In this document: positions 940 through 10,321 of the stretch, one piece after another
Layout of the letters: each line of letters starts with the position of its first letter
Position numbering within the stretch: the stretch's first letter is position 1
Source of the DNA: a virus
Lineage: Duplodnaviria > Heunggongvirae > Uroviricota > Caudoviricetes
Virus record (IMG/VR): IMGVR_UViG_2740892234_000013
DNA: 10,321 bases
Strand: one strand, 5' to 3'
The notes under the pieces: model-generated
Told to the model about the DNA's origin: nothing
The model's database searches: none
What the model saw: only the letters and a program-made list of their open reading frames with translations
Made by a program: the position numbers and the translations under genes

Positions 940-1160
940 GTTGTATGATCTCTGGAGTGAGCAAACGTATCTATGGCACAGAGTAAAGCCTAATCTGACA
1001 GGCCGCTCTGTGTCTGGAGTAGATTTTAGTAAAGCATTATTTTATTAGTGCAAATTCTAATCAATACATTTTATGTATATGATATCCTGCAGACTTTAAT
1101 GACTTGGTTTAGGCTAACCAGATAACACTGAAGGAATATTTTTGATAATTAAGGTACGGT

Positions 1161-1754
1161 ATGTTTACTAAGCGACGATTAAAAAATATTAACTGGGAGG
1201 CAAGTTCAGTGATTCTTGCTATGGTTCTCTTTGTTGGAAATATATTTTATACAAATCATCGTGATGATATAAGCATGGAGGCTGAGAGGGACAGTATCAG
1301 AACAATGTTTGCATATGAAATCACTAATAACCATCGCGCTCTCACTTTTCTTGATAAAACGAGATATATTGGCTTTGACGAAAATTCGGAGCATTTTGTT
1401 GGCGAGCCTTTTGCCATTAATGTCAAATCATTAGGGGGGCCTCGCTTACAGATTGCATTAAACCAGACTGATAAAGTGTTTAAATCCTACTTCAGCGAAT
1501 TAAGTAAGCTTGATAAAGAGGATGTTACTCTTCTTATGGACTATTACCATGAGCAAAGCATCCTGCTGGAGCGTGTAAAATCTACGTTACAGAAGATGAA
1601 AAGTGGTAATGATATTAAAGTTGATATTGATGGTTACTTATTAGAAGAACACTTCATGAATGAGCTTAATCTTTCTAATATTTTGCTTAAACGCTATAGC
1701 CATTTGTTGTCACAATACGCTAAAGAACATAAAACAAAAGATTTACATAATTGA
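1161..1754 (+). CDS. Hypothetical membrane-anchored protein of unknown function; cargo (moron) gene at the Z/fun-equivalent position
   Basis: 197-aa ORF with an AAGG Shine-Dalgarno at 1151-1154, 6 nt before the ATG. The N-terminus has basic residues (KRRLK) followed by one hydrophobic segment (SSVILAMVLFVGNIFY), i.e. a probable signal-anchor or uncleaved signal. The rest is hydrophilic and contains no Cys. The region is AT-rich: I counted 18 G+C in the 60 nt 1201-1260 versus 38 in 2101-2160 inside FI. I recognise no known family. Confidence 0.6.
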   Translation: MFTKRRLKNINWEASSVILAMVLFVGNIFYTNHRDDISMEAERDSIRTMFAYEITNNHRALTFLDKTRYIGFDENSEHFVGEPFAINVKSLGGPRLQIALNQTDKVFKSYFSELSKLDKEDVTLLMDYYHEQSILLERVKSTLQKMKSGNDIKVDIDGYLLEEHFMNELNLSNILLKRYSHLLSQYAKEHKTKDLHN

Positions 1755-1960
1755 TAATCTGCTAATGGTTATTCATGGGGTAACTATGTTTTATATGTAA
1801 TCCAACTCAGATGAATTATTGATTCTGGATAATAACCGCAGAGCGGCATATACCCTGACAGGCAAATGTCCGCTTCTTGTTCAAAGCAGACTGTCAGATT
1901 TGATAACTTTTGGGCTATGTAAATTGTCAGTCGGAAAATGAGTGAGTTCAAATCAGGACA

Positions 1961-1987
1961 GGCGGGCGAATTGCCCGCCTTTTCTTT
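1961..1987 (+). terminator. Rho-independent terminator downstream of the cargo gene
   Basis: Perfect 7-bp GC-rich stem GGCGGGC (1961-1967), loop GAATT, GCCCGCC (1973-1979), followed by TTTTCTTT (1980-1987). Confidence 0.7.
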
Positions 1988-1989
1988 AT

Positions 1990-2060
1990 CTGTTGTTTCA
2001 TCCACTGACCAGCCAGGTCAAATAGCGTCTCATGCTCTGCACAACAGAAAATAGTTGCAC
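1990..2060 (+). promoter_or_regulatory. Candidate late promoter region for the FI-FII-E-T-U-D operon (P2 P_F equivalent, Ogr-dependent)
   Basis: Located between the terminator and the FI start, where P2 has P_F. Contains TGTTGT (1991-1996), a perfect dyad TGACC-AGCCA-GGTCA (2006-2020) and ACAACA (2041-2046). I could not place an exact TGT-N12-ACA Ogr element, so the coordinates are approximate. Confidence 0.3.
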
Positions 2061-2083
2061 CCATTAACCACGGAGTTAAACGG

Positions 2084-3274
2084 ATGAGTGACTATCATCA
2101 CGGCGTGCAGGTGCTGGAGATTAACGACGGCACCCGCGTCATTTCCACCGTATCCACGGCCATTGTCGGCATGGTCTGCACGGCCAGCGATGCGGATGCG
2201 GAAACCTTCCCCCTCAATAAACCGGTGCTGATTACCAACGTGCAGAGCGCAATTGCAAAGGCCGGTAAAAAAGGCACGCTGGCGGCGTCGTTGCTGGCCA
2301 TCACTGACCAGTCAAAACCGGTCACCGTTGTCGTGCGCGTGGAAGACGGCAACGGCGATGACGAAGAAACGAAACTTGCGCAGACCGTTTCCAATATCAT
2401 CGGCACCACCGACGAAAACGGTCAGTACACCGGACTGAAAGCACTGCTGGCGGCGGAGTCGGTAACCGGTGTTAAACCGCGTATTCTCGGTGTGCCGGGA
2501 CTGGACACCAAAGAGGTTGCCGTCGCACTGGCATCAGTCTGTCAGAAGCTGCGCGCTTTCGGGTATATCAGCGCATGGGGCTGTAAGACCATTTCCGAGG
2601 TGAAAGCCTACCGCCAGAATTTCAGCCAGCGTGAGCTGATGGTCATCTGGCCGGATTTCCTCGCATGGGATACGGTCGCCAGTACCACCGCCACCGCGTA
2701 TGCCACCGCCCGTGCGCTGGGTCTGCGCGCTAAAATCGACCAGGAGCAGGGCTGGCATAAAACGCTGTCCAACGTCGGGGTGAACGGTGTTACCGGCATC
2801 AGCGCGTCCGTATTCTGGGATTTGCAGGAGTCCGGCACCGATGCTGACCTGCTTAACGAGTCAGGCGTCACAACGCTGATTCGCCGTGACGGTTTCCGCT
2901 TCTGGGGTAACCGTACCTGCTCTGATGACCCGCTGTTCCTCTTTGAAAACTACACCCGCACCGCGCAGGTGCTGGCCGACACGATGGCTGAGGCGCACAT
3001 GTGGGCGGTGGACAAGCCCATCACCGCAACGCTGATTCGCGACATCGTTGACGGCATCAATGCCAAATTCCGTGAGCTGAAAACAAACGGCTATATCGTG
3101 GATGCGACCTGCTGGTTCAGCGAAGAATCCAACGATGCGGAAACCCTCAAGGCCGGAAAACTGTATATCGACTACGACTATACACCGGTGCCTCCTCTCG
3201 AAAACCTGACCCTGCGCCAGCGTATTACCGATAAATACCTGGCAAATCTGGTCACCTCGGTTAACAGCAATTAA
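2084..3274 (+). CDS. FI: Contractile tail sheath protein (P2 gpFI)
   Basis: 396 aa, the same length as P2 FI. GGAG Shine-Dalgarno at 2072-2075. First gene of the conserved FI-FII-E-T-U-D block. Confidence 0.9.
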   Translation: MSDYHHGVQVLEINDGTRVISTVSTAIVGMVCTASDADAETFPLNKPVLITNVQSAIAKAGKKGTLAASLLAITDQSKPVTVVVRVEDGNGDDEETKLAQTVSNIIGTTDENGQYTGLKALLAAESVTGVKPRILGVPGLDTKEVAVALASVCQKLRAFGYISAWGCKTISEVKAYRQNFSQRELMVIWPDFLAWDTVASTTATAYATARALGLRAKIDQEQGWHKTLSNVGVNGVTGISASVFWDLQESGTDADLLNESGVTTLIRRDGFRFWGNRTCSDDPLFLFENYTRTAQVLADTMAEAHMWAVDKPITATLIRDIVDGINAKFRELKTNGYIVDATCWFSEESNDAETLKAGKLYIDYDYTPVPPLENLTLRQRITDKYLANLVTSVNSN

Positions 3275-3286
3275 GGAGCCTGACCG

Positions 3287-3805
3287 ATGGCAATGCCGCG
3301 CAAACTCAAGTTAATGAACGTCTTTCTGAACGGCTACAGCTATCAGGGCGTTGCAAAGTCCGTCACGCTGCCAAAACTGACCCGTAAACTCGAAAACTAT
3401 CGCGGTGCGGGGATGAACGGAAGCGCACCGGTAGACCTCGGCCTTGATGACGATGCGCTGTCAATGGAGTGGTCGCTCGGTGGTTTCCCGGATTCGGTTA
3501 TCTGGGAGCTTTACGCAGCAACCGGTGTGGATGCCGTGCCGATTCGTTTTGCAGGCTCTTACCAGCGCGACGATACCGGCGAAACGGTGGCCGTCGAGGT
3601 GGTCATGCGTGGACGTCAGAAAGAAATCGACACCGGCGAGGGTAAACAGGGAGAAGACACCGAGTCGAAAATCTCCGTGGTCTGCACCTATTTCCGGCTG
3701 ACGATGGACGGTAAGGAGCTGGTCGAAATCGACACCATCAACATGATTGAGAAGGTGAACGGCGTCGACCGGCTGGAGCAACACCGCCGCAATATCGGCC
3801 TGTAA
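3287..3805 (+). CDS. FII: Tail tube protein (P2 gpFII)
   Basis: 172 aa, the same length as P2 FII. AAGGAG Shine-Dalgarno at 3272-3277. Immediately follows the sheath gene. Confidence 0.9.
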   Translation: MAMPRKLKLMNVFLNGYSYQGVAKSVTLPKLTRKLENYRGAGMNGSAPVDLGLDDDALSMEWSLGGFPDSVIWELYAATGVDAVPIRFAGSYQRDDTGETVAVEVVMRGRQKEIDTGEGKQGEDTESKISVVCTYFRLTMDGKELVEIDTINMIEKVNGVDRLEQHRRNIGL

Positions 3806-4137: not shown

Positions 4138-4289
4138 CGTTCCCGAAAAATCTGTCGGTCGATGACCTGATGGCGGATGTGGCAGTGATATTTCACTGGC
4201 CGCCATCAGAACTGTATCCCATGAGCCTGACCGAACTCATCACATGGCGCGAAAAGGCGCTCCGGCGAAGCGGAAACACGAATGAGTAA
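3862..4289 (+). CDS. E+E': Tail assembly chaperone gpE+E' made by a -1 programmed frameshift at 4110-4116
   Basis: After the T-run the -1 frame is open to TAA at 4287-4289. My translation of that frame is FVAELGAVTFPKNLSVDDLMADVAVIFHWPPSELYPMSLTELITWREKALRRSGNTNE, which matches the P2 E' extension as I recall it. The stop overlaps the T start codon at 4282. Confidence 0.8.
4110..4116 (+). other. Slippery heptamer TTTTTTG for the E/E' -1 frameshift
   Basis: T(4110) TTTTT(4111-4115) G(4116), 21 nt before the gpE stop. Equivalent to the G/GT and E/E' shift sites of lambda and P2. Confidence 0.75.
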
Positions 4290-6729
4290 CAATGTAAAAT
4301 TACAGGTATTGCTCAGGGCTGTTGACCAGGCATCCCGCCCGTTTAAATCCATCCGCACAGCGAGCAAATCGCTGTCGGGGGATATCCGGGAAACACAAAA
4401 ATCACTGCGCGAGCTGAACGGTCAGGCATCCCGTATTGAGGGATTTCGCAAGACCAGTGCACAGCTCGCCGTGACTGGTCATGCACTTGAAAAGGCACGG
4501 CAGGAGGCCGAAGCCCTTGCCACACAGTTTAAAAACACCGAACGTCCGACACGTGCTCAGGCGAAAGTGCTGGAATCAGCAAAGCGTGCGGCGGAGGACT
4601 TACAGGCGAAATATAACCGCCTGACGGATTCCGTTAAACGCCAGCAGCGGGAACTGGCCGTTGTGGGAATTAATACCCGCAATCTTGCACATGATGAGCA
4701 GGGACTGAAAAACCGTATCAGTGAAACCACCGCACAGCTTAACCGTCAGCGTGACGCGCTGGCGCGTGTCAGTGCGCAACAGGCAAAACTTAACGCAGTA
4801 AAACAGCGTTATCATGCTGGCAAGGAACTGTCCGGAAATATGGCCTCAGTGGGCGCTGCCGGTGTGGGGATTGCGGCGGCGGGAACGATGGCCGGAGTTA
4901 AGCTGCTGATGCCCGGTTATGAGTTTGCGCAGAAAAACTCAGAATTGCAGGCCGTGCTCGGTGTGGCAAAAGATTCCGCCGAAATGGCCGCGCTCCGCAA
5001 ACAGGCGCGCCAGCTCGGCGACAATACCGCCGCCTCAGCGGATGATGCGGCCGGTGCGCAGATTATCATTGCGAAAGCGGGTGGGGATGTTGATGCCATT
5101 CAGGCGGCAACGCCGGTCACGCTGAACATGGCGCTGGCGAACCGCCGCACGATGGAAGAAAACGCCGCCCTGCTGATGGGGATGAAATCCGCCTTTCAGC
5201 TTTCAAACGATAAGGTCGCTCATATCGGGGATGTTCTCTCCGTGACGATGAACAAAACCGCCGCCGATTTTGACGGCATGAGCGATGCGCTGACCTATGC
5301 CGCACCTGTGGCAAAAAATGCCGGTGTCAGCATTGAAGAAACCGCCGCAATGGTCGGGGCGCTGCATGATGCAAAAATTACAGGCTCAATGGCGGGGACG
5401 GGAAGCCGTGCCGTGTTAAGTCGCCTGCAGGCACCAACGGGAAAAGCATGGGATGCACTCAAAGAGCTTGGCGTGAAAACCTCAGACAGCAAGGGAAACA
5501 CCCGGCCAATATTTACCATTCTGAAAGAAATGCAGGCCAGTTTTGAGAAAAACCGGCTCGGTACTGCCCAGCAGGCGGAATACATGAAAACTATTTTCGG
5601 GGAGGAGGCCAGCTCAGCCGCCGCCGTGCTGATGACTGCCGCCTCAACCGGAAAACTGGACAAACTGACCGCTGCGTTTAAAGCCTCAGACGGGAAGACT
5701 GCCGAGCTGGTAAATATCATGCAGGACAACCTCGGCGGTGACTTTAAGGAGTTTCAGTCCGCTTATGAGGCGGTAGGGACAGACCTGTTTGACCAGCAGG
5801 AAGGCGCACTGCGTAAGCTCACACAGACGGCCACAAAGTATGTGTTAAAACTCGACGGCTGGATACAGAAAAACAAATCACTGGCGTCAACCATTGGCAT
5901 CATTGCCGGTGGCGCGCTGGCGCTTACTGGCATCATCGGTGCAATTGGTCTTGTAGCCTGGCCGGTTATCACCGGCATCAATGCCATCATCGCGGCAGCA
6001 GGCGCAATGGGTGCAATCTTCACGACGGTTGGCAGTGCCGTTATGACTGCTATCGGGGCGATTAGCTGGCCGGTTGTGGCAGTGGTGACCGCGATTGTCG
6101 CCGGGGCGTTGCTTATCCGTAAATACTGGGAGCCTGTCAGCGCATTCTTTGGCGGTGTGGTGGAAGGGCTGAAAGCGGCATTTGCGCCGGTGGGAGAACT
6201 GTTCACGCCACTGAAGCCGGTGTTTGACTGGCTGGGGGAAAAGTTACAGGCTGCGTGGCAGTGGTTTAAAAACCTGATTGCACCGGTCAAAGCCACCCGG
6301 GACACCCTGAACCGTTGCCGTGACACGGGCGTCATGTTCGGGCTGGCACTGGCTGACGCGCTGATGCTGCCGCTTAATGCGTTCAACAAATTACGCAGCG
6401 GCATTGACTGGGTACTGGAAAAGCTCGGGGTCATCAACAAAGAGTCAGACACACTTGACCAGACCGCCGCCAGAACTCATGCCGCCACGTATGGCACCGG
6501 TGGTTATATTCCGGCGACCAGCTCTTATGCAGGCTATCAGGCTTATCAGCCGGTCACGGCACCGGCTGGCCGCTCTTATGTGGACCAGAGTAAAAACGAA
6601 TATCACATCAGCCTGACGGGTGGTACTGCACCGGGGACACAGCTTGACCGCCAGTTACAGGATGCGCTCGAAAAATACGAGCGGGATAAACGTGCGCGCG
6701 CCCGTGCCAGCATGATGCATGACGGTTAA
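4282..6729 (+). CDS. T: Tail tape measure protein (P2 gpT)
   Basis: 815 aa, the same length as P2 T. Coiled-coil-like Q/R/A-rich N-terminus and a long Gly/Ala/Ile-rich hydrophobic central segment (GIIAGGALALTGIIGAIGLVAWPVITGINAIIAAAGAMGAIFTTVGSAVMTAIGAISWPVVAVVTAIVAGALL), typical of tape-measure proteins. Confidence 0.9.
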   Translation: MSNNVKLQVLLRAVDQASRPFKSIRTASKSLSGDIRETQKSLRELNGQASRIEGFRKTSAQLAVTGHALEKARQEAEALATQFKNTERPTRAQAKVLESAKRAAEDLQAKYNRLTDSVKRQQRELAVVGINTRNLAHDEQGLKNRISETTAQLNRQRDALARVSAQQAKLNAVKQRYHAGKELSGNMASVGAAGVGIAAAGTMAGVKLLMPGYEFAQKNSELQAVLGVAKDSAEMAALRKQARQLGDNTAASADDAAGAQIIIAKAGGDVDAIQAATPVTLNMALANRRTMEENAALLMGMKSAFQLSNDKVAHIGDVLSVTMNKTAADFDGMSDALTYAAPVAKNAGVSIEETAAMVGALHDAKITGSMAGTGSRAVLSRLQAPTGKAWDALKELGVKTSDSKGNTRPIFTILKEMQASFEKNRLGTAQQAEYMKTIFGEEASSAAAVLMTAASTGKLDKLTAAFKASDGKTAELVNIMQDNLGGDFKEFQSAYEAVGTDLFDQQEGALRKLTQTATKYVLKLDGWIQKNKSLASTIGIIAGGALALTGIIGAIGLVAWPVITGINAIIAAAGAMGAIFTTVGSAVMTAIGAISWPVVAVVTAIVAGALLIRKYWEPVSAFFGGVVEGLKAAFAPVGELFTPLKPVFDWLGEKLQAAWQWFKNLIAPVKATRDTLNRCRDTGVMFGLALADALMLPLNAFNKLRSGIDWVLEKLGVINKESDTLDQTAARTHAATYGTGGYIPATSSYAGYQAYQPVTAPAGRSYVDQSKNEYHISLTGGTAPGTQLDRQLQDALEKYERDKRARARASMMHDG

Positions 6730-8467: not shown

Positions 8468-8686
8468 ATGTTTCATTGTCCTTTATGCCAGCATGCCGCA
8501 CATGCGCGTACAAGCCGCTATATCACTGACACGACAAAAGAGCGTTATCACCAGTGCCAGAACGTGAATTGCAGCGCCACGTTCATCACTTATGAGTCGG
8601 TACAGCGATACATCGTGAAGCCGGGAGAAGTCCACGCCGTGAGGCCGCACCCGTTGCCGTCAGGGCAGCAAATTATGTGGATGTAA
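8468..8686 (+). CDS. ogr: Late-gene transcriptional activator Ogr (C4 zinc-finger)
   Basis: The 72-aa product from the internal ATG at 8468 starts MFHCPLCQHAAHARTSRYITDTTKERYHQCQNVNCSATF, i.e. a CxxC...CxxxxC zinc-binding pattern and the Ogr/Delta family N-terminus. GGAAGAGG lies just upstream. The 93-aa ORF in the track from 8405 is probably an over-extension. Confidence 0.85.
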   Translation: MFHCPLCQHAAHARTSRYITDTTKERYHQCQNVNCSATFITYESVQRYIVKPGEVHAVRPHPLPSGQQIMWM

Positions 8687-8788: not shown

Positions 8789-8815
8789 AAAAAATAAGCC
8801 CGTGTAAGGGAGATT
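8789..8815. other. attR: P2 att core (attR crossover region), prophage/host boundary
   Basis: AAAAAATAAGCCCGTGTAAGGGAGATT matches the 27-bp P2 attP/attB core as I recall it. It lies after ogr, where P2 attP is located, and coincides with the 3' end of cyaR. Confidence 0.7.
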
Positions 8816-8875
8816 ACACAGGCTAAGGAGGTGGTTCCTGGTACAGCTAGCATTTTATGGGTTATGTTTTTCAGC
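8789..8875 (-). ncRNA. cyaR: CyaR (RyeE) small regulatory RNA, Hfq-dependent and CRP-activated
   Basis: The reverse complement of 8789-8875 reads GCTGAAAAACATAACCCATAAAATGCTAGCTGTACCAGGAACCACCTCCTTAGCCTGTGTAATCTCCCTTACACGGGCTTATTTTTT (87 nt), which matches the CyaR sequence as I recall it, including the CCTCCTT motif. The terminator hairpin is GCCTGTGTAA/TTACACGGGC plus a U-tract. Confidence 0.75.
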
Positions 8876-8930
8876 GAAACGGATGATAACCTTAATAAAT
8901 ACAGCTGTATGTGATCGGTTTCTAAGAATT
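8876..8930 (-). promoter_or_regulatory. cyaR promoter with candidate class II CRP site
   Basis: On the - strand, TATCAT sits at 8888-8883 (about -13 to -8 from a 5' end at 8875). A TGTGA half-site at 8910-8914 places a 22-bp CRP window centred at about -41.5; the second half-site (TTTCT) is weak. Confidence 0.4.
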
Positions 8931-8959: not shown

Positions 8960-10321
8960 TCACTTACCGTGGGGATTACGCGTGGTTTCCCCGGAGAAAT
9001 TACGCATCAGCAGCGCGTAATTGAGCTCAAGATCCTGCGGGACCGGGAGCCACACAGTATAACCATCGCCTGGTGCTATCGGCATAGCTTCGCCTTTGGC
9101 GTTTTCCATGTGCTCAAGGGTAAAATTAATGTTGCCTTGCGGCGTCATCAGCTCAAGGCTGTCGCCAACGGAGAATTTATTTTTCACCGCTACCGCCGCG
9201 AGGTCCCCCTTGCGCTCACCGGTAAACTCACCAACAAACTGCTGGCGGTCAGAAACTGAATAACCGTATTCGTAGTTCTGATAATCGTCGTGAGTATGAC
9301 GACGCAGGAAACCTTCGGTATAGCCACGATGCGCCAGGCCTTCCAGGGTTTCCAGCAGGCTGGTGTCAAACGGTTTGCCCGCAGCGGCGTCATCAATAGC
9401 TTTGCGGTAAACCTGTGCGGTGCGTGCGCAATAGTAGAAAGATTTGGTACGGCCTTCGATTTTCAGCGAATGCACGCCCATTTTGGTCAGGCGTTCTACA
9501 TGGGCGATAGCGCGCAGATCTTTCGAGTTCATGATGTAAGTGCCGTGCTCATCTTCAAACGCGGTCATATACTCGCCCGGACGCTGGGCTTCTTCGATCA
9601 TAAACACTTTGTCGGTTGGTGCGCCGATACCCAGCGTCGGCTCAACATTTTGCACCGGAATCGGCTCGTACTTGTGTACGATGTTGCCAACATCATCTTC
9701 TTTCCCTTCCTGGACGTTGTACTCCCAGCGGCAGGCGTTGGTGCAGGTGCCCTGGTTCGGGTCGCGCTTGTTGATATAGCCAGAGAGCAGGCAGCGACCG
9801 GAGTAGGCCATGCACAGCGCGCCGTGCACGAAGATCTCTACCTCCATATCCGGCACCTGATTGCGGATCTCTTCAATCTCTTCCAGCGACAGCTCGCGAG
9901 AGAGGATCACGCGGGTCAGTCCCATTTGCTGCCAGAATTTCACCGTCGCCCAGTTCACGGCGTTAGCCTGTACCGAGAGATGGATCGGCATTTCAGGGAA
10001 GTGCTCCCGCACCAGCATAATCAGCCCCGGATCGGACATAATCAGCGCATCCGGCCCCATTTCCACCACCGGTTTCAGGTCACGGATAAAGGTTTTCAGC
10101 TTGGCGTTGTGCGGTGCAATGTTGACCACGACATAAAACTTTTTCCCCAGCGCGTGGGCTTCATTGATGCCGAGCTGAAGATTTTCGTGGTTGAATTCGT
10201 TGTTGCGCACACGCAGGGAATAACGCGGCTGGCCCGCATAAACAGCATCTGCGCCATAAGCGAAAGCGTAACGCATATTTTTCAGCGTTCCCGCCGGGGA
10301 AAGGAGTTCCGGTTTAAACAT
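8960..10321 (-). CDS. trhP: U32-family peptidase-like protein YegQ/TrhP (prephenate-dependent tRNA U34 hydroxylation)
   Basis: Complete 453-aa ORF whose start codon is the last 3 nt of the window on the - strand. The sequence (MFKPELLSPAGTLKNMRYAFAYGADAVYAGQPRYSLR...) matches E. coli YegQ as I recall it, which is also 453 aa. GC-rich host-like composition. Confidence 0.85.
   Translation of the reverse strand: MFKPELLSPAGTLKNMRYAFAYGADAVYAGQPRYSLRVRNNEFNHENLQLGINEAHALGKKFYVVVNIAPHNAKLKTFIRDLKPVVEMGPDALIMSDPGLIMLVREHFPEMPIHLSVQANAVNWATVKFWQQMGLTRVILSRELSLEEIEEIRNQVPDMEVEIFVHGALCMAYSGRCLLSGYINKRDPNQGTCTNACRWEYNVQEGKEDDVGNIVHKYEPIPVQNVEPTLGIGAPTDKVFMIEEAQRPGEYMTAFEDEHGTYIMNSKDLRAIAHVERLTKMGVHSLKIEGRTKSFYYCARTAQVYRKAIDDAAAGKPFDTSLLETLEGLAHRGYTEGFLRRHTHDDYQNYEYGYSVSDRQQFVGEFTGERKGDLAAVAVKNKFSVGDSLELMTPQGNINFTLEHMENAKGEAMPIAPGDGYTVWLPVPQDLELNYALLMRNFSGETTRNPHGK

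Follow-up and report, generated by a model that had tools for sequence, protein, structure and literature searches.

Phages of the P2 group hold accessory genes between the tail-fibre assembly gene G and the tail sheath gene FI, and in P2 the occupant of this interval is fun(Z), annotated as blocking T5. Here we describe the occupant of the same interval in a P2-like prophage, a gene encoding a protein of 197 residues (1161-1754, + strand). The DNA analysed is a viral stretch of 10,321 nucleotides (nt), IMG/VR record IMGVR_UViG_2740892234_000013, and is called the window below. We consider this occupant a credible candidate for a new phage-exclusion or defence gene. In the most general terms, it is probably lysogenic-conversion cargo directed against phages or competitors.

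Known occupants of the hotspot and related exclusion proteins

The G-FI hotspot is already established and the new part is the occupant gene. The iLund4u preprint cites Calendar 1998 and Nilsson 2004 for the Z/fun hotspot, and the preprint rediscovers the G-FI interval. A second defence-enriched locus of P2, which holds fun and three validated PD systems, is described by Vassallo 2022 (PMC9519451). The initial annotation of the window had credited the hotspot to Rousset 2022. This attribution has to be corrected, since according to Vassallo 2022 (PMC9519451) the locus of fun “was not noted” in that paper. The genes tested in Rousset 2022 are old and tin, and its text, as searched, mentions neither tail fibre nor sheath nor a second hotspot.

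Moura de Sousa 2026 (PMC13586616) reports that the tail-gene hotspot holds 16% of P2 defence systems, and that the interval from primase to att is a P4 defence hotspot with 7% of P4 systems. The same paper finds close homologues of defence genes (above 85% identity) to be exchanged almost never between P2 and P4. Among the new systems presented there, none resembles the 197-residue protein.

In comparison with fun(Z), the gene has the same G-FI insertion point, is also AT-rich, and is also a single accessory gene swapped between otherwise near-identical phages. However, the two are unrelated in sequence (hhalign probability 0.07%), and on this value membership in the Fun(Z) family was rejected. 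The protein is also shorter, with 197 residues against 528, is encoded on the opposite strand and is predicted to be membrane-anchored.

The second set of comparators is formed by HK97 gp15, T4 Imm and T4 Sp, which are likewise small, phage-borne, with an N-terminal membrane anchor and without an enzymatic motif. They are encoded as morons among or beside tail genes, and provide the working model for action. In contrast to them, the 197-residue protein is larger, with a predicted folded ectodomain in the form of a four-helix bundle. P22 SieA and lactococcal Sie2009 are further small membrane-anchored superinfection-exclusion proteins, and cor and llp also lie beside receptor-binding genes. With regard to the form of such proteins, small and of the inner membrane with a part outside the cytoplasm, one transmembrane (TM) helix and an N-in/C-out orientation are predicted here, and the gene is non-essential, as other phages lack it.

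Boundaries and composition of the cassette

The gap between G and FI (940-2083) has a G+C content of 36.9%, against 55.7% for the region from FI to ogr. Within the gap, the cargo open reading frame (ORF) reaches 34.7%, and the minimum among 200-nt windows is 27.5%. The AT-rich island between GC-rich flanks reported in the initial annotation is therefore confirmed. Its placement at an equivalent of the P2 Z/fun hotspot was likewise borne out by the two flanking genes. The left flank is G, the equivalent of P2 G (412-939, + strand; Pfam Caudo_TAP, E 1.3e-34), which closes the late V operon and has counterparts in matching genomes under the annotation “tail fiber assembly protein”. The right flank is FI (2084-3274, + strand), with the domains Phage_sheath_1 (E 9.9e-34), Phage_sheath_1C and Gp18_domIII_N.

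Breakpoints were mapped against P2, Wphi, P24C9 and P22H4. The similarity of the window to these phages extends 73 nt beyond the G stop codon, until 1012, and is back at 1864-1869. The swapped cassette therefore spans about 1013-1864 (+ strand), an AT-rich segment without similarity to P2-like phages with other cargo. This is narrower than the island as first delimited, which had comprised the whole of 940-2083. The left spacer (940-1012, + strand) is phage backbone, kept in all four phages. The segment upstream of FI (1865-2083, + strand) is also conserved backbone, with a mean column identity of 88% to the same four. It contains the Ogr-activated promoter pF (+ strand), with the activator site at about 1991-2016 and the transcription start at about 2058, both positions being transferred from the P2 annotation.

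Between the same flanks, P2 carries fun(Z) (528 residues, - strand), Wphi carries orf44 (299 residues, + strand), P24C9 carries a NUDIX hydrolase and a HAD phosphatase (+ strand), and P22H4 carries a gene for 251 residues (- strand). An alignment across P2-like phages had been suggested at the outset, and its result is conserved flanks with variable content, comprising these four other cargo types and one empty site. The empty site is found in Yersinia phage P37 (NC_070907, 838-985, aligned to window 1955-2083), where the G stop codon is followed by 5 nt, by the same terminator hairpin as in the window and by pF.

This hairpin is a Rho-independent terminator at 1960-1980 (+ strand; dG -20.1 kcal/mol, z -4.9), followed by the U-rich UUUUCUUUAU. 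Its place is the conserved backbone on the right, a short way 5' of the Ogr activator site and the pF start, and phages with other cargo share it. Since it is kept regardless of cargo, and lies 5 nt after the G stop in P37, it is the V-operon terminator of the backbone. Judging from the aligned sequences, G and the V-operon terminator thus delimit the insertion site of all hotspot cargo. In the initial annotation a strong terminator had been given to the cargo gene. The hairpin is real, but it belongs to the backbone: it is the only terminator downstream of the 197-residue gene, which has none of its own. The backbone terminator would end any transcript of the cargo gene.

These results bear on a possible role in the phage lytic cycle, where the gene would be the last late gene of the V operon and an accessory to tail-fibre assembly, adsorption or lysis timing. 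The gene is on the same strand as V to G, no canonical terminator was found to separate G from the ORF, and that of the operon is downstream, all of which agrees with such a role. We nevertheless regard it as very improbable. The cassette is present in about 14% of detectable P2-like G-FI junctions (209 of 1471 places), and the junctions of other phages are filled with unrelated genes, in part of opposite orientation, or are empty, as in P37. Homologues are also found in satellites, plasmids, elements resembling integrative and conjugative elements (ICEs) and chromosomal islands, without tail genes. Furthermore, copies disrupted by insertion sequences (IS) occur in otherwise similar prophages.

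Upstream of the gene, a candidate promoter region was located at 1078-1149 (+ strand), with TATGAT at 1078-1083 and ATAACA-16-GATAAT at 1122-1149. Both promoter-like blocks are kept in a Pantoea copy described below. The same is true of a Shine-Dalgarno-like AAGG (1151-1154, + strand), read from the sequence 6 nt 5' of the ATG.

Repeats and a second hairpin are found around the cassette junctions. An inverted repeat flanks the cargo of P2, Wphi, P24C9 and P22H4, with CCAGAAGCGGAC on the left and GTCCGCTTCTCG on the right. Only the right arm is retained in the window (GTCCGCTTCT, 1868-1877), and the left arm is missing. The window has a 9-bp direct repeat, CTGACAGGC, read from the sequence at 995-1003 and 1855-1863, and an inverted pair at the junctions, GCCGCTCTG (1002-1010) and CAGAGCGGC (1839-1847). 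The junction repeats may be traces of the exchange mechanism. The second hairpin (970-1018, + strand; dG -24.2 kcal/mol, z -4.4, no U-run) is mostly in the left spacer, directly 3' of G, and is kept in the same four phages; its candidate roles are an RNA 3' stabiliser, a processing site or a recombination site.

Two further ORFs were treated as spurious because they overlap conserved regulatory DNA. These are a minus-strand ORF at 1784-2005 and an annotated ORF of 39 residues in the pF region.

The 197-residue gene and its protein

The gene at 1161-1754 is the sole real ORF of the gap. It belongs to PHROG 3829 and is named “lysogenic conversion protein” by NCBI, a name for which no experiment was traceable in the literature. 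Between copies from different genera, the ratio of non-synonymous to synonymous substitution rates (dN/dS) is 0.08-0.16, and this is therefore a real gene under purifying selection. The first description of one ORF of 197 residues with a Shine-Dalgarno sequence agrees with these results. Within E. coli, dN/dS is 0.24-0.72, on very few substitutions. Amino-acid changes in E. coli are concentrated in the low-confidence C-terminal tail (residues 186-191), and residue 55 is T in the window allele and A in all other E. coli and phage copies compared.

The protein has a single TM helix at about residues 13-31 (1197-1253, + strand; hydropathy 1.5-2.0), preceded by the basic tail MFTKRRLK. Sequence analysis found no second hydrophobic segment, no cysteine and no amphipathic or pore-like segment. 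A shared layout is seen among members of 165-218 residues, in which a basic N-terminus is followed by one hydrophobic helix and then by a helical domain of ~165 residues. In 29 of 32 members, the N-terminal side of the helix is more positive (mean +2.1) than the 15 residues past it (mean -0.7). Given this charge bias and the single TM helix, the positive-inside rule predicts an N-in/C-out topology with the domain in the periplasm.

AlphaFold2, run on the 32-sequence alignment, gave a model with a pLDDT of 83.8 and a pTM of 0.72. The model has a long helix (residues 12-66), a conserved loop GEPFAINLKSLGG, and helices packed as a four-helix bundle, and on this model the ~165 residues past the membrane are predicted to form a periplasmic four-helix bundle. 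In the family alignment R47, N57 and L117 are invariant, with A51, E53, I54, Y110, Y128, Y129 and F165 nearly so. The protein has no catalytic signature. A metal-binding site (E53, H58, H130, E131, H164) was considered and dropped, as the His residues vary in distant members. A cleavable signal peptide or lipoprotein was ruled out by the lack of Cys, the lack of an AXA-like site and the continuous helix 12-66 in the model.

The fold class is that of the 4HB_MCP periplasmic sensor domains (Tar/Tsr, PcaY, PilJ, TorS). Unlike these, the protein lacks both a second TM helix and a signalling module in the cytoplasm. Membership in 4HB_MCP was rejected, with no Pfam match in 32 members and higher scores for designed bundles, so that the likeness is one of fold class only.

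This likeness bears on the possibility of an envelope function other than defence against phages. The protein could be an orphan immunity protein, against a periplasm-acting bacteriocin, a type VI secretion system effector or a tailocin, or it could modulate a host periplasmic sensor or chemoreceptor and so alter surface or fitness. We consider such a non-defence envelope function unlikely. Designed helical bundles resemble the protein at least as well as sensor domains do, and no cognate toxin gene recurs nearby. In terms of genomic context, anti-phage neighbours are present in 4 of ~12 contexts, and 4 more contexts are known P2/P4 defence hotspots.

Size and distribution of the family

Searches of Pfam and NCBIfam gave no useful match for the 197-residue protein, with TIGR04078 (E 0.028) being noise. 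In PHROGs the sole match was phrog_3829, of “unknown function”. PADLOC-DB v2.0.0 (5027 models) returned 0 matches at E<=10, in line with the initial annotation, which had recognised no known defence family. Among 32 family members, PADLOC gave only four isolated matches, in one member each, with a best E of 0.0044. A profile search of PDB sequences gave one match at chance level (6un9, E 0.07). In comparison with the “PDC” candidates of PADLOC and the “PD-” candidates of Vassallo, the kind of evidence (hotspot and mobile elements) and the single-gene format are the same, whereas the cargo gene is outside the 5027 PADLOC v2 models.

The family is small, with 38 clusters at 90% identity among 5.8 billion proteins. 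At 50% identity there are 28 representatives among 1.84 billion proteins, and 50 clusters were obtained by profile search. All members with a named source are from Enterobacterales. A member is carried by 2 of 185,579 species-representative genomes, and these two loci are too few for a statistical defence-association score.

The cassette was found in 203 of 5426 complete E. coli genomes, at 209 places, all chromosomal, with 95-99.8% identity. The gene is thus present in about 4% of complete E. coli genomes, with an annotation limited to a generic name and no recognisable domain. It is dispensable and sometimes lost. For reference, the conserved pF segment was found at 1471 places in 1018 genomes. 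Every sampled copy is placed between the tail-fibre assembly gene and the sheath gene. In phages the cassette is present in 13 records, all Peduovirus, and a tblastn search of the phage collection returned only these 13 records, which carry this same gene.

Some copies are interrupted by ISEc12 or IS1, as in E. coli 2023CK-01509 (locus L025, 2697-5537) and strain EECO1006. Truncated forms of 99 residues are found on about 40 contigs.

Homologues on other mobile elements

The homologues are solitary cargo, always on mobile or island DNA, and the genes are AT-rich in every host. P4-like satellites account for three cases, in Pantoea ananatis, Kosakonia sp. and K. oryzendophytica (loci L005, L010 and L027), where the gene is placed after the alpha primase and before the end of the element. 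The P4-satellite members have about 61% identity to those of the E. coli P2 hotspot. The presence of the gene in both P2 phages and P4-like satellites bears on the claim that these share almost no defence cargo. If the gene is a defence gene, it would be a rare cargo family common to P2 and P4 at the family level (about 61% identity).

In Pantoea sp. OXWO6B1, a copy with 72% identity is found in a non-P2 island (locus L009, 5847-6738). Common to this copy and the window are the upstream blocks and, past the right junction, about 30 nt of P2 backbone (to window 1897). As it carries this remnant of P2 backbone, the island copy was probably captured from a P2-like phage, as far as the sequence comparison indicates.

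Several homologues have defence genes as neighbours. At the end of a Salmonella lambdoid prophage, the homologue lies immediately 5' of a type II pair, a methyltransferase and a restriction enzyme. A homologue of 218 residues with 28% identity (locus L017, 5090-6657) lies 38 bp 3' of a TIR protein of 290 residues, which matches PADLOC PDC-S66 (E 2.4e-112) and ThsB, with the integrase of an ICE-like element adjacent. The TIR protein and the homologue could be a two-gene unit or could be plainly adjacent in an island. Another homologue is divergent from Lamassu LmuA and LmuB, on a contig bearing ParA. In Proteus mirabilis, the homologue is between ahpCF and a putAbiC-domain protein with an HD-domain protein.

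The other settings are the tra-gene region of a conjugative element, a locus with resolvases and ParB, an AlpA island near Rhs genes, and an island with RadC and an antirestriction gene.

Placement at a defence hotspot or beside a defence gene thus recurs, with the P2 hotspot, three P4 primase ends, and restriction-modification (RM), Lamassu, TIR/PDC-S66 and putAbiC neighbours, as observed contexts counted without a background control. This genomic company across mobile elements is as expected for a defence or exclusion gene, a view that the contexts support.

The same contexts could also indicate a membrane-located effector or sensor of abortive infection. In that case, infection would lead to oligomerisation, and this to collapse of the membrane potential or to signalling, with entry unblocked. 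TM-anchored effectors are common in defence systems, and distant homologues adjoin the TIR protein (PDC-S66/ThsB-like, 38-bp gap), Lamassu and the putAbiC-domain protein. The hotspot and the distribution on mobile elements are the same as for an exclusion protein. However, the copies in E. coli, Pantoea, Kosakonia and Salmonella are solitary, with no recurring partner, and no PADLOC model matches. The protein has a single TM helix and no amphipathic or pore-like segment, and the charge bias sets its large domain beyond the inner membrane, out of reach of most phage triggers. Abortive infection is therefore an improbable mode of action for this protein.

Proposed action at the envelope

Superinfection exclusion at the envelope, by a protein expressed from the prophage, is the reading that we tentatively favour. 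It is the most economical, as it matches both the architecture of the protein and the position of the gene beside receptor-binding genes. The gene would be an accessory, “moron”-type lysogenic-conversion gene that a P2-like prophage carries as an insertion after G and before the V-operon terminator, and its protein would be made in the lysogen and act at the envelope. The short basic N-terminus would be cytoplasmic, with one helix across the membrane and the four-helix bundle facing the periplasm. The target of this bundle would be either an ejected phage component (a tape measure, ejection or tail-tip protein) or an entry factor in the host inner membrane. As a result, incoming phage DNA would not get across the periplasm and the inner membrane. 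What we infer here is that the gene is expressed in the lysogen, that it acts against phages and at which stage it blocks them.

Several points weigh against exclusion at the envelope. The RM, Lamassu and TIR neighbours act in the cytoplasm, and so support defence in general and not an envelope mechanism. Homology to HK97 gp15, T4 Imm and T4 Sp was rejected (hhalign 0.4%, 1.3% and 0.05%). The bitopic inner-membrane form with N-in/C-out topology is a prediction from sequence by the positive-inside rule. In terms of expression, a consensus scan for an own promoter found 2 sigma-70-like sites against 3.8 expected by chance, and the gene would be read through from G late in infection. Regarding morons in the sense of Juhala and Hendrix, with an own promoter and terminator, the promoter-like sites are thus not above chance and only the backbone terminator is downstream. 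Finally, no phenotype for any family member was found in the papers and supplements searched. The protein accessions and the N-terminal peptide were also absent from the Vassallo 2022 and DefensePredictor supplements searched.

A more specific form of envelope exclusion is doubtful. In this form, the family would be a new, Enterobacterales-restricted, single-protein envelope immunity, intercepting the ejection machinery of unrelated phages and possibly of tailocins, and traded among P2, P4, lambdoid prophages, ICEs and plasmids.

If the protein does block phage entry, it would add a new protein family to the few envelope-level exclusion proteins. Such proteins matter for host-range prediction and when phages are chosen for therapy of infections by E. 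coli, Salmonella and related pathogens. The hypothesis is cheap to test, as a small single gene is easily cloned.

Other genes of the window

From the ORF listing and Pfam scans, the window contains the right-hand late region of a P2-like prophage. The C-terminus of the tail fibre protein H is at 121-408, upstream of G. Downstream of FI is the tube gene FII (3287-3805), and this is followed by E, the tape measure gene T (4282-6729), U, D and ogr (about 8468-8686).

Beyond ogr, a full-length CyaR/RyeE small RNA was found on the - strand (8792-8877; Rfam RF00112, 100.7 bits). A host gene (8960-10321, - strand) comes after CyaR in the window. The right end of the prophage is thus adjacent to cyaR and the host gene, the same place at which E. 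coli K-12 has the P2 remnant ogrK.

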